This document shows, one piece after another, positions 586 through 48,462 of a DNA stretch of 50,015 bases. The DNA is taken from IMG/VR virus record IMGVR_UViG_2917403263_000001, one strand, 5' to 3'. The notes under the pieces are model-generated. The model searched no databases and was not told the DNA's origin. It saw nothing but the letters and a program-made list of their open reading frames with translations. Source of the DNA: a virus. Taxonomy: Duplodnaviria > Heunggongvirae > Uroviricota > Caudoviricetes. The position numbers and the translations under genes were made by a program. The stretch's first letter is position 1; every line of letters begins with the position of its first letter.

Positions 586-2656
586 TATGCAATCCTCATG
601 AATAGCGCCACAAACGCCTGATCGCTGTATGTCAGCATGGTGCCTGACATTGCAATGTACGAGCCAGGAAGCGAATGTGAGTTGCAGCCGACAACGTAGA
701 ATCTGGGGGTTGATGCATAAGTGCCTGAAGGATTAAATGGACACTCAATTCCAACTGGCCCCAGACGCGAACCCGGATAAGACTGTCTTCTGACAACCTT
801 TATATTTTTATCACCGTCAGCAGTTCCCTGATATGCAGCTAATATCAGGCCTCCAATATCGGGGTCACCCCAGTCGTAATTGACGTATGAAAATAGCATG
901 TTACGAACTTTGTTTTTTGTCATGCTAATCTCTTCCCATCCACCTAACGAGCCACCGAAAGTGGAACCGATGAGAACATCCCTATTTATCCCGTAAAAAA
1001 TCAGCAACTTCTTTACTCTGCGAGCATTGCTATAACCATCCCGATTTGTGTTAATCCACAAAACATCGATGATCCCCTCAAAATTCACACTGGATATCGG
1101 CGTGTATCCATTGAATTTATGGTAGTACCTGCCAGGAAGAGCATAATTAGCCCAATTTTCCAGTGCAGAGGCACTATTAAAACTTACACGCCCGTAATAT
1201 TCGTCTTCATACGTGTACCCAAACCCATAAGCGCCAGCCAACGCCAAGACCGAATTCATCATCGCCTTATCGGGCCATGTAAAGGGATTACTGATGACTG
1301 TTTTATTAGCAACCCCCCTGATTTGCAGATTCTCCTGTGCTTTAGCCAGTGCTGACGAGCCAGCATCAACGATTTCCTGAAGGTTGTTTTTTATCTTGAG
1401 ATACCCGCCATCGAGGATATCGTCAATTTCGCCTTTGGCATTCTCTGCTGATTCTGCAGCTGTCGCTGCATCCTGCGCATACTTTTGAGACTGCTGCTCA
1501 TGCAGCTCTGCTTTCTGTGCGTGTTTTTGGGCGTTCTGTTCGCTCAGTGCCGCATTGTCAGAACTTGTTTTTTGAATCTGTGGCACTGAATTCAGAATCC
1601 TTCGCTGCCTGCCGTGCTTGCTTTACCGCGTCCGCGACATCCTGCACACCCTGCTGCACCTGCCCGGCGTTCTGCTCAACTTCTGAAGCCAGTTGTTCAA
1701 CATATTGCTTATCTTTGGCAGCCGCGTCAGCGTTCTGTTGCACGTTATTCGCCAGCGTCTGGCAGTCTTCCTTTATCTTCTGTGCATCGGCTGCGTGTTG
1801 CCCTGCCAGTCGCTCGCTTTCCGCTGCTGCATCCTGACTATTTTTCGCCGCCGTTTCGCTGGTTTTGGCATTCGTTTCACTGGTTTTTGCTGCCGTCTGG
1901 CTGGACTTTGCGTTGGTTTTCGCTCGTCTTTGCTGCTTTCTGGCTGTTAGCCGCAGCAGTTTCTGATCCAGCTGCCGATGTCGCAGAACCGGCTGCCGCG
2001 CTCTCGCTTGCTTCCGCTGCATCCTGGCTGTTTTTCGCCGCAGTTTCACTGGCTTTGGCATTCGTTTCGCTGTCTTTTGCTGCCGTCTGGCTCGACTTTG
2101 CTGCTGTCTCGCTATTTTTTGCGTTGGTTTCCGATTTTTTGGCTGCTGTCGCGAAGTTTTCCGATGCAGTCTGTGAGGCCGCTGCTGCCTGTGCGCTGTT
2201 AGCTGCATCCGTTTCTGAGCTTTTCGCCGCGTCCTTCGATGATGCCGCTGCAGTTTCGGATTTCTTTGCCTCTGCTGCGCTCTGAGAGGCGGCTTCAGCG
2301 TTACGCGCAGCTTCGTCCACCATTGCCTCAAAACGGCGCAATGCCTCCGGCATAACATCATCTTCCGTCATGGCACCGAGAAAATCGTTCAGTGTTCCCG
2401 GCCTGGAACCGTCATAGACGGTAATGGTTCCGGCATGTGAAGGCGGAAAACCTTCAACCAGCAGGATAACGCTGTACTGACCATACTCAACATCCATGCT
2501 ATAACGCCCGGCTTCATCCGGATTTTCTGAGGCCACCGTATTCACCACGACTGTGGTGCTGTTACGCTTTGCCTTCAGTTGAATAGTGCAGTTCTGTATT
2601 GGTTTTCCCGCACCATCTTTCAGTACACCTGAGATTTTTACTGCTGCCATATCCAC
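585..2656 (-). pseudogene. stf: Side tail fibre (lambda Stf-like N-terminus, SETAAK/SETNAK repeat shaft, distinct C-terminal receptor-binding domain); reading frame broken twice
   Basis: The N-terminus MAAVKISGVLKDGAGKPIQNCTIQLKA... matches the lambda Stf pattern. The protein continues across three frames (1877..2656, then the 1558..~1916 part of ORF 1558..2361, then 585..1586). The frame switches sit at a T4 run (1917-1920) and a T6 run (1568-1573). Removing one base at each restores the repeat ...AAKTSETNAKSSQ... and ...DSKTSSDNAAL... Confidence 0.85.
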
Positions 2657-2662
2657 TCCACA

Positions 2663-2692
2663 AAAAAGCCCGCCTGAACCGGCGGGCTGTCA
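2663..2692 (-). terminator. Rho-independent terminator downstream of lom
   Basis: Minus strand reads AGCCCGCC-ggttca-GGCGGGCT followed by TTTTTT. Confidence 0.7.
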
Positions 2693-2714
2693 TAACACTG
2701 TGTTACCCGGCTAA

Positions 2715-3314
2715 TCAGAATTTATAACCGACACCAACGATGAAACCGTCAGTGCGCCAGTCGCCACTGCCGGAACCTTCATAAGCAAGGTCAATGGCCA
2801 CGGATTCGGTCGGGTTAAACTGCACGCCAGCCCCCCACGCCAGAGACGTGTTGCTGTGGCGACCGCCATCACTTCCGGTCAGCACATCGTGCGTTTTCCC
2901 CTTGTTGTCAGCTACGCGGAGATAATCCCCGGAAAACGTCGAAACACGGCTGTAAGCCACACCCGCCATCGCATAAGCACTGAACCATTCATTCACGCGC
3001 ACAGATGGTCCCGCCATCATGCTGAACCAGCGGTTATGCGCTGAATCTTCATGCCAGCGGGTATCGCTGTAACGGGTAATCTGGCGATTCTTGTCTCCTG
3101 CATAGCTGAATGACGTCACCAACCCCAGCGTGTCCGTAAATTCATAACGGTATTTCACGTTAATGCCCTTCAGGTCATCGTTGCCGGGCATATCAGTATG
3201 GGACTGAAGATACCCGCCGCTTAGTGTGGACTGATGCTCTACTGCACTCGCTGGCGTACCAGCGGCGACCAGCCAGACTACTGCAGACAGAATAACAGCA
3301 CATAATTTACGCAT
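2715..3314 (-). CDS. lom: Lom outer-membrane protein (Ail/Lom/OmpX family)
   Basis: 199 aa with a signal peptide, beta-barrel repeats and a terminal GVGYKF; canonical position between J and stf. Confidence 0.9.
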
Positions 3315-3338
3315 AATTACCTCTCGCTTTTCTGCAAT

Positions 3339-3363
3339 AAAAAAGGCGCCATTTCTGGCGCCC
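3339..3363 (-). terminator. Rho-independent terminator downstream of J
   Basis: Minus strand reads GGCGCC-agaaat-GGCGCC followed by TTTTTT. Confidence 0.65.
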
Positions 3364-3383
3364 GTATTGGGGTTATAAATATT

Positions 3384-6300
3384 TCAACGAATACTGATAC
3401 CGGAAGCAGCTTTTTTGGTCACAATCACCGTACAGTCTGTGATGTTACCTGCGCCCCGATTGCCTTTCTGGAAAATCTTAAACTCCAGAGTGACGCTACC
3501 ACCACCACTCGGCATATCAATAACCGCGCTGTAACTACCGGGAATGGCTCCTTTAGTTTCTCTGGATGCGATTAATACGCCGTTTTTACGAACTTCAAAA
3601 CCATAACCCGTGTATCGCGTACCTCCCGGTTTATTACCGCTCCCCGGATCGTCATACGCCACACCGTTAAAAATAATGGGCGGAATAATGATTTGGCGGT
3701 CAAAGTTATGATCATCGTAAATGGTGACTGTAACCGTCCCGCCTGGTGTTTCCGTGTTACCCCACGTACCAGCCTGTTTCGGGAATGATTTGGATACAGT
3801 TTTAACGAAGTCACCTCTGACCTGGTTCGCCTCCAGCATGCCCTTAATCGTACAGTTTTCATTTACCGTGACGTTGTTGAGCGTCCCGGAGTTCGCATTC
3901 ACGTTACCGCTGATATCAGCATTTCTCGCCGTCAGCCGCCCGTCCGGTGTCAGGGAAAATGCCGGAGGATTACCACCGCTGGTAATGGTGGGAGCCGTCA
4001 GATATTTCAGAAACACTTCGTTCATGAATATCTGGTTGCCCTGCGCCACAAACATCGGCGTTTCATTCCCGTTTGCCGGGTCAATAAACGCGATACGGTT
4101 AGCGGCAACCAGGAACTGGCTCAGTTTGCCTTCCTCCGTATCCTCCATGCTGAGGCCAAGCCCCGCGACATAATGCCTGCCGTCTTCGGTCTGCTCAATT
4201 TTGACGCCCCACATGGCATTCCATTTATCGTTGGCGTCTTTCCACTCTTTCGAAAACTCCTCCAGTTTGCTGGCGTTATCCTCCGTCAGCTCGACTTTTT
4301 CCAGCAGCTCTTTACCGAGATGGGATTCGGTTATCTGGCCTTTGAAAAAATCCAGGTAACCTTCGGCATCATCGCTCGCCCGACCGACAGCCTCCACGAA
4401 TGCCGATTTGCCAACGGTGTTCACACTGCGGATATAAAAATAATAATCATGGCCCGGTTTGATATTGATACTGGCAGCTATCCAGTACAGCGCCGTGCCA
4501 AGATAGCGGGCTGCGGTTTCAACCTGCCTGATATCCGCAATCCGCTTTTCCGAGAACCAGAACTCAAACTGTACCGTCGGGTCATAAACGGCAAGATGCG
4601 GCGTTGCGGTTATCTGAAAATAGCCCGGCGTCAGCTCAATCCGCGACGGTGCTGCCGGTGCGGCAATCCGGAACGATACCGACGCCGGATCGCCCTGCTG
4701 CCCCCACGCATTTACTGCCCGGACTGTCAGCGTGTAACGCCCCAGCGCCAGTTGCCTGAAGCGGTATGTGGTTTCCGTCGTCCGGGCTGTGCTGACAAGC
4801 CGCTCACTGCCGTCATCCGCTGCCACGGTCAAGCGAAGCGTAAAGCTCACCCCCTTCACCACCTTCGGCGTGTCCCATCGCGCCAGTACCTGATATTCCC
4901 CGCTGTCTGCGGTGACTTCGGCAGTCAGGTGCTGCACCGCTGGCGGCGTGACACCATTCACCGTGCCACTCTGGTCGCCGTCAAAGTGCGCCCCGTTATC
5001 CACGATGGCCTCTTTTTCCGGCACATGCTGCACGGCGGTGATGGCATACGTGCCGTCGTCGTTCTCACGGATACTCACACAGCGGAACAGGCGCTGACGC
5101 AGCGTCGGCAGCTTCAGCCCCCACACGCTGTATTCGGCAACGCCGTCAGGAACACGGCTCACTTTTACCTTCACGCCGTCGGTGACGGACTGGACCTCCA
5201 CGCTGACCGGATTCCCCTGCCCGTCAACCAGGCTTATCAGCGTGGTGCCGGAGGATGGCAGCGTGATTTCACGGTCGAGCGTCAGCGTCCGGGTCTGGCT
5301 GTTCACCGCCAGCACACGCCCACCGATGCTGATCCCCGCATAGTCATCATCACAGATTTCAATGACATCGCCCGGTACATGGCGAAGCCCTTCTGCGCCC
5401 ACGCTGAAGTCCACGGTCTGCGTTTCCAGCAGCTCCGTTTTAATCAGCCACAGCCCGGCGCGGTGTGCCTGCCCCCGGCTGGTACAGCCAAAGGCATCCA
5501 TCTTCGTGACGTTACGACCGTAACGGAGAATGGCCTGCGTGTCCTCCACAAGCTCTGTCGCCGTCTCCCAGCCGTTATCCGGGTCAATCCAGTTCACCTC
5601 AACGGCATTATGGCGGTCCTTCAGGGCGCTGAAGCTGTAGCGGAACGGCGCGCCATCATCCGGCATCACCACATTACTGTGGTTATAGGTCCACACCTTA
5701 TCCGACGGTCGGTCCTGCACGAACGTCAGCGTCTGCCCGTTCCATACCGGCATACAGCGCATCGCCGAGCAGAAATCACTGAGAACATCCCACGCCTTAC
5801 GCTGTGTGGTCAGGTAAGCGTTACAGGTGATGCGCGGCTCCGTGCCACCAAAGCCGTCCGACACTGACTGGTCGCAATACTGGCCGATGACATACAACGC
5901 CCATTTATCCACATCCGCCGCACCAAGACGTTTCCCCATGCCGTAGCGCGGGTGGGTCAGCATATCCCACAGACACCAGGCCATATTGTCGCTGTATGCT
6001 GGCTTAAACGTTCCGTCCCAGATACCGCTGTATTGCCGCGTCTGCGGGTTATAGTTCGACGGCACCTGCAGAATGCGCCCGCGAAGATGATAATTACGGC
6101 TCACCTGCTGGCTGCCGAACTGCTCCGAATCCACCTGCACGCCGACCAGTGCCGTGTTCGGGTAGCACTGTTTCACATCGATGATTTCGGTGTATGACGA
6201 CCAGAGCGTTTTGTTCTGCAGCTGGTCTGTGGTGCTGTCCGGCGTCATCCTGCGCATCCGGATATTGAACGGGCGCGGCGGCAGGTTATCCACCACCACC

Positions 6301-27626: not shown

Positions 27627-28008
27627 TGCCGCCTCCTCCACCCCGCAGGCGGGAGAACAGGCCGGACACCAGTGATGCGATATCCTGCTGGTGGATGAAC
27701 GACAGAATCTTCACCGACACCACTGACACCAGCACTGCACACAATGCGTCGACAGGCGCTCCGTCAAACCCTGTATGCTTTACCAGCCAGGATGCCAGAA
27801 CCTCTGCACCCAGCACGCCGATAATGAACGACACCAGAAAATGCGCCGCCACACGCCACGCTGAAAGCGCCTGCGGTATCGTTGCCACAAATAACGCCCC
27901 GGCGAACGCACCAAACACAATCCCGAAATCCGTTCCGGTAAACAGCCCGAATACCGTCGCCCCGCCGAGCGCCGCAGCCGTGCCGGAACCGGATAAGGGT
28001 TCAGACAT
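27619..28008 (-). CDS. Holin-family / lysis-associated membrane protein
   Basis: 129 aa from MSEPLSGSG... after AGGAG; Gly/Ala-rich TM segments; first gene of the lysis cluster. Confidence 0.65.
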   Translation of the reverse strand: MSEPLSGSGTAAALGGATVFGLFTGTDFGIVFGAFAGALFVATIPQALSAWRVAAHFLVSFIIGVLGAEVLASWLVKHTGFDGAPVDALCAVLVSVVSVKILSFIHQQDIASLVSGLFSRLRGGGGGNA

Positions 28009-28026
28009 ACTTTTTTCTCCTGTAAA

Positions 28027-28049
28027 TAAAAAAGGCCACCAGCGGCCCG
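28027..28049 (-). terminator. Intrinsic terminator immediately upstream of the lysis genes
   Basis: Minus strand reads GGGCCGCTGGTGGCC followed by TTTTTTATTT. Confidence 0.65.
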
Positions 28050-28206
28050 TAAAAAACAACATCCCATCGTAGGAATCCGCAAATGCCTTTTGTGTGACAT
28101 AGTCTGATATGAAAAGCGAAGAATTAATGTACGGAAATAAGGATTACCAGAAATTCAGATTAATTTTCCTGTTTAAACGAGAAAAATTAATTTATATACT
28201 TTTTGC

Positions 28207-28293
28207 ACTTCCCGAGCGGGAGGTGGAAAGGAAATTCGTTATGTTTCACGGACTTTGTCCAGCGACCTTAATCCGACGGTCGCGTTTTTTTTT
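28207..28293 (+). ncRNA. Candidate small RNA A (antisense to the late transcript)
   Basis: Promoter TTTAAA-N17-TATACT (28172-28200), then about 87 nt ending in GGACtttGTCC, the hairpin GCGACC-TTAATCCGAC-GGTCGC and T9. Confidence 0.45.
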
Positions 28294-28372
28294 GCGTCAT
28301 ATTCATCGTTGACTTACATGGCATTGCCACACGGACATTATCAGTGTCCGTGTATTTTTTTGAATTCAACAC

Positions 28373-28398
28373 AAAAAAAACCGCCTGGTGCGGCGGTT
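28373..28398 (-). terminator. Intrinsic terminator (copy A of the tR'-like hairpin)
   Basis: Minus strand reads CCGCC-gcacca-GGCGG followed by T8. Confidence 0.7.
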
Positions 28399-28772
28399 GA
28401 ACAATGCTGAAGATGAATCATTTTTATTGTAGTGAAATTGAGATGTTGTGGACTTCCCTGAATATCTGACTTTATGCCAGACATTGTGGTTACAGAAACA
28501 CAATGTAAACCACCCTCATACCGGGGAACATCTCTTTGGTGTTATTTACAACACCGGAATGATGCATTTCCGACTCTCCAAAGAAACACAATATTTCTAC
28601 CGAAAATACACCATTCCGCTATTGTAAAATAACAGCGCAAACCACTGACTAGCCAATTACAAATCGGTGTTCCTGTTTCCTGAGCAATGTTTACTCTTCA
28701 TATGAGTTCTTGTCGGGGAATAAAACCACTCACCCGGAAGACAGACGTATAATAACAAGGAATAAAATCACT

Positions 28773-28928
28773 TCAACTGTAATAATCTGAAAAATGATTC
28801 TTGCCACATGAAAACACCCACCAACCGTCCATTACCACAAATAAAAAAGCCTTCACCGCGTCGCGGTTTTCCATTTTCTTTACTTCTACAATAGCCTTAC
28901 GGGTTTTCTTTTTGAAAATCACAAACAT
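28773..28928 (-). CDS. Hypothetical 51-aa protein between the two modules
   Basis: ATG after AAAGGAAAAG; no recognisable motif. Confidence 0.3.
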   Translation of the reverse strand: MFVIFKKKTRKAIVEVKKMENRDAVKAFLFVVMDGWWVFSCGKNHFSDYYS

Positions 28929-29137
28929 CGTGACTTTTCCTTTTAGTGGGTGAACCTCTGCCCGGGGTGCCCAACCCACAGAGAAAGTCACACTGACCAT
29001 CCCGTAAGCTCACCCCTGAAAGGTTCTGTGGTCTTTGATCCGCGCCGGGCGTAGCGCAAAGAATGAAATAAGCCTTATCTGAAATTAAGGTTAATCTAAG
29101 GATTTAAACCATTCTAAATGCTTAGTAGTATAAACAT

Positions 29138-29214
29138 GCCTCTTGAAAGAGGCAGATACTAATCCTTCTTCATGGACCTTGTCCCGCGGCTTTAATCCGA
29201 CAGCCGCGTTTTTT
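29138..29214 (+). ncRNA. Candidate small RNA B (antisense to the late transcript)
   Basis: Promoter TTTAAA-N17-TAGTAT (29103-29131), then the hairpin GCCTCTTgaaaGAGGC, an AU-rich linker, GGACcttGTCC, the hairpin GCGGCT-TTAATCCGAC-AGCCGC and T6. Confidence 0.45.
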
Positions 29215-29364
29215 GCCTGTATATTACCATATGATGCAAATATAAAAGGCTCACCGAAGCGAACCTGATTCAAGCGTACTTGCTGCTACAACAGGGTTAT
29301 AATACCCCAACCACATAACGCCATGTGTTCTTTTCTAATGAGTTGGTGATAATTTTATACAAGC

Positions 29365-29390
29365 AAAAAAAACCGCCTGTTAAGGCGGTG
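29365..29390 (-). terminator. Intrinsic terminator (tR'-like, copy B)
   Basis: Minus strand reads CCGCC-ttaaca-GGCGG followed by T8. Confidence 0.75.
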
Positions 29391-29593
29391 GTCAAATCAT
29401 GAAGAGTATTATTATAATATAGGTGAGGTGTCGGGTGCCTCCCGAAATATCTGACATTCCATCAGATACTGTAGTTTCCCCGCTAAACAACCACTAAAAC
29501 CACCCCCGCACATGGGGTTCACCTCATTTTGTGATGTTAACAACATCGGGATAGTGCATAATCAGCCCCAGCTAGGAAATATCAAAAATCCCA

Positions 29594-29622
29594 CTAATAA
29601 TGCACTATTCCGATAGTGTCAA
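29594..29622 (-). promoter_or_regulatory. Sigma70-like promoter TTGACA-N17-TATTAG (candidate late promoter pR')
   Basis: Read on the minus strand. It lies about 220 nt upstream of the 29365-29390 terminator, the same geometry as lambda pR'-6S-tR'. The spacer (ctatcggaatagtgcat) is conserved in copy A. Confidence 0.45.
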
Positions 29623-29749
29623 AAAAACACAGCACTGAAACTATAACTGGTCTCCGTTATAATTCGGGGGAGCGATAAAGGAGTATACGAGACCTTTCCC
29701 CGCGAGAAAAAACGCCAGTGCTGAAAAACCTGTGCCTCATTTGTTTTGC

Positions 29750-29824
<75 letters not shown>

Positions 29825-29827
29825 ATA

Positions 29828-29903
<76 letters not shown>

Positions 29904-30011
29904 ATTATTTCCTCAGACGGGAATATATCGCAACCATTCCCCCTGAAGAACTGCGGCAAATAATACGTTTAAATAATAAAACTGCAATACACCATAACGT
30001 CAAGTTTTGTA

Positions 30012-30040
30012 AAGTTATTTTTAGGTTTCTATTTTGTCAA
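30012..30040 (-). promoter_or_regulatory. Sigma70-like promoter TTGACA-N17-TAACTT upstream of the tRNA pair (alternative pR' candidate)
   Basis: Read on the minus strand in the AT-rich spacer between the Q terminator and tRNA-Thr. Confidence 0.45.
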
Positions 30041-30136
30041 CTTTTTATATAAATTTAAAAAACAGTCATAAATGTACGCAAAATATATTTTATACAACAA
30101 TTTAATCGCGCGTTTTTTTAATCAGGCTTCAGAAAT

Positions 30137-30163
30137 AAAAAAACCCGCCAGTGGCGGGTTTTT
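30137..30163. terminator. Bidirectional intrinsic terminator downstream of Q
   Basis: A7-CCCGCC-agtg-GGCGGG-T5; U-tracts are available on both strands. Confidence 0.7.
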
Positions 30164-30232
30164 AAGTTCACGTTTCTGGTTAACCTCGCGATACAGCTTG
30201 CGAAGCGTAACTGAATTGAAGCAGTTTATTGC

Positions 30233-30778
30233 TCACTTTGCAATAGTTTTTTTTTGTGCCGTGAACATTGGTTTATAAAGCATAAATTCAGCAATCATCA
30301 GCCATTGATCGATACGACGTCGACAGGTAATTAATGTCCAGTCAGGATGATTTTCATTTAACTGCTCTGCCATTTTCAGTTTGCTCATTCCCCGCCCTTC
30401 ATATCGTTGTCGGAGGATGCTAATTAATCCCGGATACTCGACCAGCACTTCGCTAATTACCCGATCAATACATAACGCCTCGGCATCAGTACAATGAGAC
30501 AACCAGCTTTTCTGCTTACCGTCGAGCATTTCCCGCAAAAATGCCTCCAGTTCCGTCTTATCAATTCCCGCTTTTTTCATCCTGCGCAGAGCTTCATTGA
30601 TGGCTGTTTTCGTCAATTTTTTGGATGCCAGCAACTGGTTAAACATATTCCCCGTCTTACCGCCGCCAATATACGACCAGCGCCCCCACATGCGCAGTTT
30701 TCCCTGAATCCAGACACTTTCCAGCGTGGTGAGACGAAGGTGTTCCCCGCTTTTTCCTGTATTTGTTGGGTAAATCAT
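30233..30778 (-). CDS. Late-gene antiterminator Q
   Basis: 181 aa from MIYPTNTGKSGEHLRLTTLESVWIQGKLRMWGRWSY...; ATGA overlap with the upstream gene; last gene before the late region. Confidence 0.8.
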   Translation of the reverse strand: MIYPTNTGKSGEHLRLTTLESVWIQGKLRMWGRWSYIGGGKTGNMFNQLLASKKLTKTAINEALRRMKKAGIDKTELEAFLREMLDGKQKSWLSHCTDAEALCIDRVISEVLVEYPGLISILRQRYEGRGMSKLKMAEQLNENHPDWTLITCRRRIDQWLMIAEFMLYKPMFTAQKKTIAK

Positions 30779-31068
30779 AAATAACCTTCCTTTCTCCAGA
30801 TTTCTTGTGTGCGAAAAACACCTTCTGCATGCATCAGGCGTAATTCTTCTTTGGTGTAATCGCTGGTTTTTACTCTCCCGTCGATTAAATCGTGGCATGA
30901 GCTACAGGCAATTGCAGCCTGCATATCGTGTGGCTTTGTCGCTGTTCCACACGTCCCCGCCAGTCTGTAATGCGCCAGCACGGAAGTTTCGGGATTGTGA
31001 TTGCAGTACCCAGGAATTCTGACCTGACACATCTGGCCCCGCGCCGCTTTACGTAAATCTGCCATCAC
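30775..31068 (-). CDS. ybcO: YbcO-like DUF1364 protein (putative nuclease of the nin region)
   Basis: 97 aa; MADLRKAARGQMCQVRIPGYCNHNPETSVLAHYRL...ACSSCHD matches the remembered YbcO pattern. Confidence 0.75.
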   Translation of the reverse strand: MMADLRKAARGQMCQVRIPGYCNHNPETSVLAHYRLAGTCGTATKPHDMQAAIACSSCHDLIDGRVKTSDYTKEELRLMHAEGVFRTQEIWRKEGYL

Positions 31069-34159: not shown

Positions 34160-34315
34160 TTACTCCTCAGGTTCGTAAGCTGTGAAGACAGCGACCTCCG
34201 TCTGGCCGGTTCGGATTCGTACCTCGCAGAGGTCTTTCCTCGTTACCAGTGCCGTCACTATGACGGTTAAACAGATGACGATCAGGGCGATTAACATCGC
34301 CTTTTGCTGCTTCAT
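34160..34315 (-). CDS. hokD: Hok/Gef-family type I toxin (HokD/RelF-like)
   Basis: 51 aa; MKQQKAMLIALIVICLTVIVTALVTRKDLCEVRIRTGQTEVAVFTAYEPEE matches my recollection of HokD; a structured hok-type leader lies upstream. Confidence 0.85.
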   Translation of the reverse strand: MKQQKAMLIALIVICLTVIVTALVTRKDLCEVRIRTGQTEVAVFTAYEPEE

Positions 34316-34582
34316 AGCCTGCTTCTCCTTGACCTTTCGGTCCGTAAGAGGCAATCTATATGTGACGAGCATATAGGGGCCTCACTTCGATTTATAGTCG
34401 GGTGGGGCTTTTCTCTATCTGCCTTTGGTAGCATGCCCGAGGCAGATAGCCTCAAGCACCCGCAGCAATTCTACTTAACTATCTTTTTCCCGCAAATCGT
34501 TTTTATCCCCAGCGGCAAATCGAATACACCATCAGCGCCACCGCCATTGCAATTCCTACCGTTGTGAATGCTTCAGGCCAAC

Positions 34583-48086: not shown

Positions 48087-48281
48087 ATGCGGTATGAAAA
48101 AGTCAAACCATGCCCTTTTTGTGGTTGTCCATCAGTAACGGTGAAAGCCATTTCAGGATATTACCGCGCGAAGTGTAACGGATGCGAATCCCGAACCGGC
48201 TATGGTGGAAGTGAAAAAGAAGCACTCGAACGATGGAATAAACGAACCACTGGAAATAATAATGGAGGTGTTCATGTATAA
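48087..48281 (+). CDS. ralR: RalR / Lar restriction-alleviation protein (type I toxin DNase)
   Basis: MRYEKVKPCPFCGCPSVTVKAISGYYRAKCNGCESRTGYGGSEKEALERWNKRT... matches my recollection of Rac RalR. Confidence 0.8.
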   Translation: MRYEKVKPCPFCGCPSVTVKAISGYYRAKCNGCESRTGYGGSEKEALERWNKRTTGNNNGGVHV

Positions 48282-48462
48282 AATTACCGCCACTATTGAA
48301 AAGGAAGGTGGCACTCCTACTAACTGGACAAGGTACTCAAAAACAAAATTAACCAAATCAGAATGCGAAAAAATGCTCTCAGGTAAAAAAGAAGCAGGCG
48401 TTTCCAGAGAGCAGAAAGTAAAACTGATAAATTTTAATTGCGAGAAAATTCAGTCCTCGTGA
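48274..48462 (+). CDS. ydaC: YdaC (DUF1187)
   Basis: 62 aa from MYKITATIEKEGGTPTNW...; ATG 5 nt after GGAGG; Rac synteny. Confidence 0.6.
   Translation: MYKITATIEKEGGTPTNWTRYSKTKLTKSECEKMLSGKKEAGVSREQKVKLINFNCEKIQSS

Follow-up and report, generated by a model that had tools for sequence, protein, structure and literature searches.

Predicted convergent small-RNA gene pairs, with a late-strand member related to STnc100 and PasD, between the tRNA genes and the holin gene of a lambdoid prophage

The window analysed here is a stretch of 50,015 nucleotides (nt) from a lambdoid prophage (IMG/VR record IMGVR_UViG_2917403263_000001), in which the late genes are located on the minus strand. Along this strand, the gene for the antiterminator Q is followed by a strong terminator, the genes for tRNA-Thr and tRNA-Gly, a stretch of 1.7 kilobases (kb) and the gene for the holin. 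The zone from Q to the lysis genes in lambdoid prophages is a site of toxins, tRNAs and other morons, and small RNAs (sRNAs) produced from that zone (AsxR, AgvB, EcOnc27/STnc100 and PasA-D) rewire host regulation in pathogenic Escherichia coli. Our subject is the 1.7-kb stretch, which contains two diverged copies, A and B, of a module that in each copy appears to consist of two small-RNA genes facing each other.

Copy A covers positions 28134-28650 and copy B positions 29065-29640, the latter extending to tRNA-Gly at 29750. The features within them are given below, where A2 and A5 are alignments of homologues described further on.

28134-28171, strand unassigned: conserved block upstream of the plus-strand promoter in copy A (repeat and pairwise search)
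28172-28292, plus strand: predicted small-RNA gene of copy A, with a promoter TTTAAA-17-TATACT at 28172-28200 (promoter scan) and an RNA at about 28206-28292
28329-28362, plus strand: second plus-strand terminator of copy A, with a stem of 11 base pairs (bp) (terminator scan; present in most homologues)
28372-28537, minus strand: predicted STnc100-like small RNA of copy A (nhmmer, A2 alignment and pair counts, fold with z=-3.05)
28628-28545, minus strand: long hairpin of copy A (inverted repeat I2, pair counts in A5, minimum free energy)
29065-29102, strand unassigned: conserved block upstream of the plus-strand promoter in copy B (direct repeat D3; kept in all homologues)
29103-29214, plus strand: predicted small-RNA gene of copy B, with a promoter TTTAAA-17-TAGTAT at 29103-29131 and an RNA at about 29137-29214
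29215-29363, minus strand: stretch between the facing terminators, restricted to the B lineage (a gap in the alignment of A and B)
29364-29551, minus strand: predicted STnc100/PasD-like small RNA of copy B (Rfam, nhmmer homologues, covariation in A2, single-sequence fold)
29622-29537, minus strand: long hairpin of copy B, 86 nt with about 32 bp, imperfect (inverted repeat I1, consensus fold and pair counts)
29623-29749, minus strand: trailer of copy B, from tRNA-Gly to the long hairpin (conserved length; a small covarying hairpin, helix 1 of A5)

A pairwise search recovered the two copies as three colinear blocks of similarity: 28372-28634 against 29364-29629 (66% identity over 273 nt, E=3e-11), 28245-28290 against 29169-29214 (85%, E=1e-10) and 28134-28164 against 29065-29095 (81%, E=3e-4). 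No third copy of the module was identified within the window. The two ordered sets of blocks described in the original prediction, which was made by a model from the sequence alone, are thereby borne out, with the true starts located about 40 nt further to the left (28134 and 29065). The three hairpins it named are likewise all present at the positions and with the substitutions described, and the compensatory changes on which it relied are real: 14 pair positions differ on both sides between A and B and are still paired, and 9 further pairs have changed on one side to a wobble pair, counted on consensus structures, each of which was obtained from about 30 homologues.

One part of the prediction was that each copy represents a single module of the late leader, and here our data point elsewhere. 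As judged from the placement of promoters and terminators, each copy is composed of two convergent RNA units in opposite orientations. Their terminators face each other at 29389-29372 (minus strand) and 29186-29214 (plus strand) in copy B, and at 28398-28379 (minus) and 28262-28292 (plus) in copy A. The plus-strand unit is terminated by the hairpin with the invariant loop, and the CCGCC/GGCGG hairpin with its T8 run, correctly taken for a terminator retained in both copies, ends a predicted minus-strand RNA of about 165-190 nt. Two facing sRNA genes with terminators of their own, placed between a moron or tRNA gene and the next late open reading frame (ORF), are thus what the window contains.

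The late-strand RNA of copy B is predicted to have a multi-branch core (29525-29425), in which a closing helix encloses four hairpins, the CGGGAGGCACCCG hairpin among them, followed by an A/U-rich linker of about 35 nt and by the terminator at 29389-29372 with its U8 run (to 29364). A candidate internal extended -10 element, TGTTAACAT, is located at 29542-29534, from which transcription would start near 29527, and its position matches that of TGTTAAAAA in the STnc100 gene of the Sakai prophage Sp5 as well as the mapped 5' end of PasD. The core of copy A (28534-28440) retains the closing helix and three hairpins, and its terminator at 28398-28379 is likewise followed by U8. Compared with the architecture of the STnc100 core, copy B has every helix and copy A every helix except the CGGGAGGCACCCG hairpin. 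The single-sequence fold of copy B is the same as the consensus (z=-3.1), and the single-sequence folds of the two copies each give the consensus independently, with z values from -2.0 to -9.5. The location is also that of STnc100, on the late strand of a lambdoid prophage downstream of Q and PR', and the same context is seen in Sp5 and in strain E2348/69.

The original prediction had named a search of Rfam as a check. At the curated thresholds, this search of the whole window returned only tRNAs, sok and RalA, and a permissive scan added a match of copy B to STnc100. A profile built with nhmmer from both window copies and PasD identified about 100 copies of the late-strand RNA in related loci, and on these comparisons we describe it as a diverged relative of the STnc100/EcOnc27/PasD family. 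Family members are repeatedly found in arrays: in one prophage (locus L045) a classical STnc100 gene (109.2 bits) and a module-type copy stand in tandem at 4648-4861 and 3797-3999, both on the minus strand, and another locus (L133) has two module-type cores with two tRNA genes between them.

Homologues were collected as 116 IMG/VR prophage loci identified by the pattern of the plus-strand terminator, and about 120 related loci overall. Alignments of non-redundant representatives were made for the late-strand RNA (A2, 30 sequences), the upstream long hairpin (A5, 28 sequences) and the plus-strand RNA (A3, 36 sequences). These per-element alignments were used instead of global MAFFT alignments of the whole module (620 nt), the identities of which are misleadingly low through inserts. 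MAFFT also put the 5' hairpin GATGTT/AACATC of copy B out of register, so that its pairs were counted as broken, whereas they are intact by eye. In A2, 94.8% of the cells are paired, as compared to 42-58% when the pairing partners are slid, and 10 pairs have changed on both sides. The corresponding values in A5 are 97.9%, 34-57% and again 10 pairs. None of 500 shuffles reached the observed value in either A2 or A5. RNAalifold on A2 gives the closing helix around four hairpins and the terminator, and the closing helix covaries, with C-G in 15 sequences and U-A in 13 at one pair. The claim of selection on RNA structure rather than on protein is supported by these numbers.

The plus-strand gene has a promoter, TTTAAA-17-TAnnnT, that is retained in all 55 sequence variants with a spacer of exactly 17 nt, and its predicted RNA is 77-87 nt long. 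In copy B, this RNA would consist of a first hairpin, a single-stranded GAUACUAAUCCUUCUUCA segment, a GGAC/GUCC hairpin and the terminator GCGGCU-UUAAUCCGAC-AGCCGC with U6 (29186-29214); it scores 103 bits with our covariance model R1 and folds with z=-3.5. The RNA of copy A scores 77 bits with R1, has a 5' part that is unlike that of copy B, and ends with the terminator GCGACC-UUAAUCCGAC-GGUCGC with U9 (28262-28292). The terminator hairpin thus has the form GCGnnn/TTAATCCGAC in both copies. The first hairpin covaries in A3 (U-A in 18 sequences and C-G in 16), and so does the terminator stem (GGUC/GACC, GGCU/AGCC and GACC/GGUC), while the GGAC/GUCC hairpin and the loop are fixed. The loop of 10 nt had been called invariant. 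It is fixed in the loci that were found by the pattern, an invariance partly imposed by the search pattern itself, and an independent scan anchored on the late-strand RNA identified the variant UAAAUCCGAC in 8 loci. When the loop sequence was searched for in the full text of the literature, the only matches were primers and miRNA sites without relation to it, and neither a wide nor a narrow scan matched the plus-strand RNA to any Rfam family.

The plus-strand gene (BLAST query 29056-29225) had matches in 306 of 5426 complete E. coli genomes, none of which annotates it as an RNA. Among species-representative genomes, a scan with the pattern of its terminator identified only Escherichia ruysiae. 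In other prophages, a holin gene (48 cases) or TerB (23 cases) lies downstream of the cassette, with a constant spacing of about 250 nt. One phage, SerU-LTIIb from an LT-IIb strain (KU052038, locus L002), contains the unit of tRNA-Gly, module and holin1 twice, with a partial holin2 in between (970-3419).

Upstream of the promoter in both copies lies a block of 40-45 nt (GAAATAAGnCTTAyCnGAAATTAAGGTTAAT) that is conserved as strongly as the plus-strand RNA itself and that might serve as an UP element, as a site for a regulator or as the leader of the late gene that follows. The second plus-strand terminator of copy A overlaps a weak R1 match at 28300-28363 on the plus strand (14.5 bits), and similar matches were seen in two other loci (L002 2799-2865 and L121 2120-2186, 14-16 bits). 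This terminator resembles the 3' half of the plus-strand RNA, repeated in tandem in a degenerate form.

For the long hairpin upstream of the late-strand core, the minimum free energy is -32.7 kcal/mol in copy B (z=-6.1). The minus strand of copy A gives -38.0 kcal/mol (z=-9.5), as compared to -15.3 kcal/mol for its plus strand. Of the cells in the alignment of this hairpin, 97.9% are paired, with G-U in 23% of the pairs, and the paired fraction drops to 75.8% on the opposite strand. The pairing is thus rich in G-U and declines on the other strand, and we conclude that the hairpin is an RNA structure of the late strand and not a palindrome in the DNA. By its look, the hairpin of copy B is a candidate processing site, resembling an RNase III-type substrate.

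The trailer that leads from tRNA-Gly to this hairpin is also conserved. The distance from the end of tRNA-Gly to the sRNA core is 194 nt in the window and 188-196 nt in 82 of 97 homologues, and a terminator scan found no terminator-like site between 29750 and 29389 outside the core. A tRNA gene just upstream on the same strand, with no terminator in between, is thus a property of copy B and not of copy A. Furthermore, the trailer contains a complementary pair of segments, CAGCACUG (29723-29713) just after tRNA-Gly and CAGUGCUG (29637-29628) before the long hairpin. Both segments are kept in tRNA-linked homologues, which suggests a long-range helix that would enclose the trailer.

A good promoter had been proposed for copy B within the same stretch. 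A sigma-70-like match, TTGATA-16-GATTAT (29585-29558), is indeed present, but it is restricted to the B lineage, being missing from most homologues and degenerate in copy A, and it is located inside the conserved hairpin. Since this hairpin is an RNA structure of the minus strand only, the stretch must be transcribed from further upstream. Upstream of the long hairpin, a sigma-70 promoter shared by the homologues was sought, but only a weak TATGAT/TATAAC/TGTAAT motif without a usable -35 box was seen.

In the B-only stretch, the terminator scan identified a third terminator-like hairpin on the late strand, at 29266-29247. Loci without the plus-strand gene have the same hairpin immediately after the terminator of the sRNA, and it could be either an additional terminator or a further small RNA. 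A weak isrB-like match to Rfam was also seen there, at 29244-29303 on the minus strand (22.3 bits, as compared to a gathering score of 35).

The surroundings of the two copies contain the following features.

30233-30898, minus strand: Q antiterminator gene (ORF list and annotation of the homologous Q gene in UMNK88)
30163-30139, minus strand: Q-proximal intrinsic terminator, an 11-bp stem with a T-run about 70 nt past the stop codon of Q (terminator scan)
30040-30012 and 30003-29975, minus strand: two candidate promoters of the prophage tRNA operon, TTGACA-17-TAACTT and TTGACG-17-TTTATT (read from the sequence)
29903-29828, minus strand: tRNA-Thr(UGU) (ARAGORN and Rfam tRNA)
29824-29750, minus strand: tRNA-Gly(UCC) (ARAGORN and Rfam tRNA)
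28927-28850, minus strand: remnant of a TerB/TciA moron gene of the tellurite-resistance family (BLAST matches to annotated TerB, translations, UMNK88 alignment)
28048-28033, minus strand: terminator-like hairpin GGGCCGCTGGTGGCC with a T-run, immediately 5' of the ribosome-binding site of the holin gene and kept in related loci (terminator scan)
28008-27619, minus strand: holin gene (ORF list, position of the ribosome-binding site, holin annotation in homologous loci)

The Q-proximal terminator is likely the equivalent of tR', an assignment made by inference. The tRNA genes score 72.3 and 65.6 bits with the Rfam tRNA model. The two candidate tRNA promoters score under the thresholds of the promoter scan and are located downstream of the tR'-like terminator, a position from which they would permit transcription of the tRNAs and copy B independently of Q. 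Their -35 boxes, TTGACA and TTGACG, are perfect or near-perfect and lie in an A/T-rich stretch between this terminator and tRNA-Thr. The scan identified 13 terminator-like sites in 27950-30300, as compared to 2.3 +/- 1.4 in shuffled sequences, and five of these belong to the late strand in the interval from Q to the holin gene. Elsewhere in the window, the tail genes are about 92% identical to E. coli (BLAST of the tail region), and matches above the curated Rfam thresholds were obtained for the antitoxin RNAs RalA (48280-48458, minus strand, 213 bits) and sok (34313-34461, minus strand, 110 bits). The prophage therefore carries toxin-antitoxin loci of the RalR/RalA and hok/sok types; sok was found again beside the module in many related loci.

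The two copies had been described as tandem, but the comparative data do not support a local tandem duplication, and the copies are far too diverged to be recent duplicates. The identity between A and B is 0.58-0.66, whereas each of them is up to 0.74-0.80 identical to cassettes of other phages, and by this measure A and B are not each other's closest relatives. Between them lies the TerB remnant, in which the first 27 codons are retained and the homology stops abruptly near 28848. Because the copies are not closest relatives and are separated by a truncated TerB gene, we conclude that they were joined by recombination and not by local duplication. In the simplest history, one phage with the order tRNA, pair B and TerB would have recombined with a second phage with pair A followed by the holin gene, and the join would have broken TerB. 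The same arrangement of A and B is found in three other loci, one of them 91-100% identical across the elements (L089; also L053 and L112). The segment of about 200 nt from the break-point in TerB to copy A (28650-28848) has no counterpart in the related loci inspected, and the A-type copy of L053/L112 has a different flanking sequence at this place.

Convergent pairs of Hfq-bound sRNAs have previously been described 3' of PR', at the site between a moron and the next ORF, in eight prophages of strain Sakai, with antisense-oriented partners that have conserved 3' and variable 5' parts (Tree et al., 2014; PMC4104026). EcOnc27/sRNA103 of E. coli O157 corresponds to STnc100 and binds Hfq (PMC12711010), and PasD1 and PasD2 of enteropathogenic E. 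coli are abundant, Hfq-dependent and detected on northern blots (Pearl Mizrahi, 2021; PMC8550237). According to a preprint, PasD and STnc100 are of common ancestry (Zhu, Shabalina and Storz, 2026; bioRxiv 10.64898/2026.05.13.724894). In our scans, the STnc100 gene of Sp5 scored 207.7 bits and was faced directly by AsxR on the other strand (88 bits, a positive control), and the validated PasD2 of E2348/69 scored 41.4 bits on the Rfam STnc100 model.

The late-strand RNA of the window resembles STnc100 in its position on the late strand after Q/PR' and before the lysis genes, and in having a closing helix that encloses several hairpins, among them CGGGAGGCACCCG, followed by an A/U-rich linker and a terminator. 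The alignment of copy B covers the entire model, and the Sp5 member also faces a convergent small RNA. Unlike STnc100, the window type has the 86-nt hairpin and tRNA-Gly at a fixed distance upstream, copy A is without the signature hairpin, and both copies fall under the 47-bit threshold. PasD1 and PasD2 are likewise diverged relatives of STnc100 just under the Rfam threshold and align with both window copies through the core, but PasD is located after a DUF3927 gene and just downstream of a TTGACT promoter of its own, lacks the tRNA and the long hairpin, and has a linker/seed sequence unrelated to those of the window copies.

The plus-strand RNA resembles AsxR and AgvB in that it is transcribed opposite to the late genes, faces a gene of the STnc100 type and has a variable 5' part followed by a conserved 3' hairpin and terminator. 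It differs from these in its predicted length (77-87 nt as compared to 51-60 nt), in an extra 5' hairpin and in the spacing of the partners, the 3' ends of which are 80-150 nt apart and not back to back. PasA and PasC are also small RNA genes that neighbour the holin operon and run against late transcription, but the sequence of PasA is unrelated by eye. Yet another relevant system is 3'ETS-leuZ, reportedly described by Lalaouna et al. in 2015 as an sRNA from the trailer, or external transcribed spacer (ETS), of a tRNA operon that is released by processing. Copy B is similar in that it starts right after tRNA-Gly without an intervening terminator and extends as far as the first terminator of the unit; it is different in that its trailer of about 390 nt is highly structured and its processing is a prediction, and copy A is without a tRNA.

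Taken together, we consider it probable that each copy is an allele of the lambdoid convergent small-RNA pair cassette, located in the moron zone between Q/PR' and the lysis genes. The cassette is real, structured and non-coding, and it is a known kind of element in an undescribed and unannotated variant; no new principle is involved. By analogy of position, the plus-strand RNA is the equivalent of the anti-sRNAs AsxR and AgvB.

Several observations weigh against this interpretation. The match of copy B to Rfam STnc100 (RF02076; 42.9 bits, E=4e-7, model positions 1-206) does not reach the gathering threshold of 47, copy A gave no match at E<=10, and no module-type homologue in 20 loci reached the threshold. 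In copy A, the most conserved hairpin of the family has degenerated to CAGGGAAGUCCAC; as copy A also lacks a tRNA and a convincing promoter, it may give no RNA except during lytic growth, or may be a copy in decay. The plus-strand RNA has no match at E<=10 to AsxR (RF02703) or AgvB (RF02702) in the wide or the narrow scan, and R1 gave no match at E<=10 with filters off to the PasA region of prophage PP2 (L003) or the PasA-like region of PP4 (L004) of E2348/69, the two prophages covered by the PasA/PasC test, with the PasC locus (PP5) outside it. Furthermore, the plus-strand gene is absent from 29 of 37 additional related loci with at least 500 nt of downstream sequence, and is therefore optional. 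No partner from a known family was found to replace it where it is absent, and these loci carry a second late-strand terminator. The homologues come from a single genus, and part of the covariation signal is shared descent; the slide and strand controls argue against shared descent as the whole explanation, although this answer is only partial. Finally, transcription, RNA ends, Hfq binding and targets are all inferred for the window and the module-type homologues.

If the copies are cassettes of this kind, the lysogen would produce both RNAs, and these would base-pair with targets in trans, probably with the help of Hfq. The late-strand RNA would be a base-pairing sRNA that binds Hfq, by analogy with EcOnc27 and PasD, with its seed in the variable linker. 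Since the linkers and the 5' parts differ between A and B, the two copies would have different targets. One hypothesis, and the simplest, is that the RNA of copy B is the 3' trailer of the tRNA-Thr/tRNA-Gly transcript and is released by cleavage at the conserved 32-bp hairpin; alternatively or additionally, it could start from the internal extended -10 promoter TGTTAACAT at 29542-29534. The plus-strand RNA would be made from an autonomous gene with its own sigma-70 promoter and could serve as a trans regulator or a sponge, or its targets could be late transcripts from read-through, with which it is complementary over its full length. The terminators would also block read-through into the holin gene until a Q-modified polymerase passes. 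The excess of terminator-like sites, one of which abuts the ribosome-binding site of the holin gene, suggests that the cassettes would also be barriers that only the Q-modified polymerase passes.

A more far-reaching version of this scheme is possible, and we put it forward as no more than tentative. It holds that the STnc100-like subfamily is the 3' ETS of a prophage tRNA-Thr/tRNA-Gly operon, cut at the 32-bp hairpin as a phage counterpart of 3'ETS-leuZ, and that the RNA facing it represents an undescribed family of anti-sRNA-like regulators, in which the terminator loop UUAAUCCGAC is nearly invariant and the 5' part used for targeting can be exchanged. This family would occur in about 6% of the complete E. 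coli genomes, where it is never annotated.

We also considered the possibility that the elements act in cis only, with terminators and processing hairpins that insulate the lysis genes in the lysogen against transcription coming from PR', the tRNA promoter or antisense promoters and that shape or destabilise the 2-kb leader in lytic growth, without targets in trans. The number of terminator-like sites, including the five between Q and the holin gene, the conservation of the long hairpin as late-strand RNA and the two late-strand terminators retained in loci without the plus-strand gene are all in line with such a function. It is compatible with the cassette interpretation and is a true rival only in stating that nothing happens in trans, which we find unlikely: plain terminators need neither a conserved multi-branch core of 100 nt nor a conserved promoter on the opposite strand, and EcOnc27 and PasD are abundant Hfq-bound RNAs with many partners in RIL-seq, in which interacting RNAs are ligated and sequenced (PMC4104026, PMC8550237). 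Likewise, the conserved blocks could be signals in the DNA, such as palindromic protein-binding sites or boundary sequences for the exchange of morons by recombination. The cassettes are located exactly at mosaic junctions (tRNA, TerB, holin) and on both sides of inserts, in the window as well as in phage SerU-LTIIb, and the conserved 45-nt block before the plus-strand promoter is a further point in favour. We nevertheless regard this as highly improbable, because the G-U pairs of the long hairpin would be mismatches in DNA and the pairing falls from 98% to 76% on the other strand, and because stems covary around fixed loops and whole promoter-terminator units are conserved. That the cassettes serve as homology patches for recombination may be a side effect.

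The original prediction saw in each copy a promoter, a 220-nt RNA and a terminator in the manner of lambda pR'-6S-tR', marking the start of the late operon and the Q site. The window does share with lambda a short terminated RNA in the leader of the late operon, and the TTGATA-16-GATTAT match is about 195-220 nt upstream of the copy B terminator. However, the match is not conserved among the homologues and is located in a hairpin that is itself transcribed from upstream. The module is 600-1900 nt from Q rather than adjacent to it and does not form a conserved promoter-proximal unit, and a separate strong terminator (30163-30139) stands about 70 nt after Q, where tR' is expected. In other prophages, the unit recurs far from Q, downstream of stx2B, DUF3927 genes or tRNAs. 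This model is already contradicted by the comparative data and is scarcely credible. Even less can be said for the idea that decayed or very small genes for proteins make up the region, to which we attach practically no credence. RefSeq lists hypothetical proteins over some homologous stretches, and the ORF list has ORFs of 50-75 amino acids in the region. But A and B have no ORF in common, their insertions and deletions are not multiples of three, the variable columns are spread evenly over the codon phases without a 3-base periodicity (p=0.88-0.99), and the stop-free stretches are no longer than those of shuffled sequences. The only recognisable gene-like piece is the TerB remnant between the copies, and the statement that the region holds almost no convincing ORF was accurate.

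Interpreted as alleles of a convergent small-RNA cassette, the two copies indicate that the convergent sRNA pair has at least one further, unannotated form. This form can be stacked, with two alleles that have different presumptive targeting sequences in a single prophage, and in one lineage a tRNA gene is physically linked to the cassette with a fixed spacing. For annotation, it matters that the Rfam threshold for STnc100 misses the subfamily in the window, just as it misses the validated PasD, and that the plus-strand RNA belongs to no Rfam family. The approximately 120 loci and the two structure models provide a test set for moron cassettes that carry their own regulatory RNAs and terminators, and the finding is of interest both for annotation and for the biology of sRNAs in prophages.

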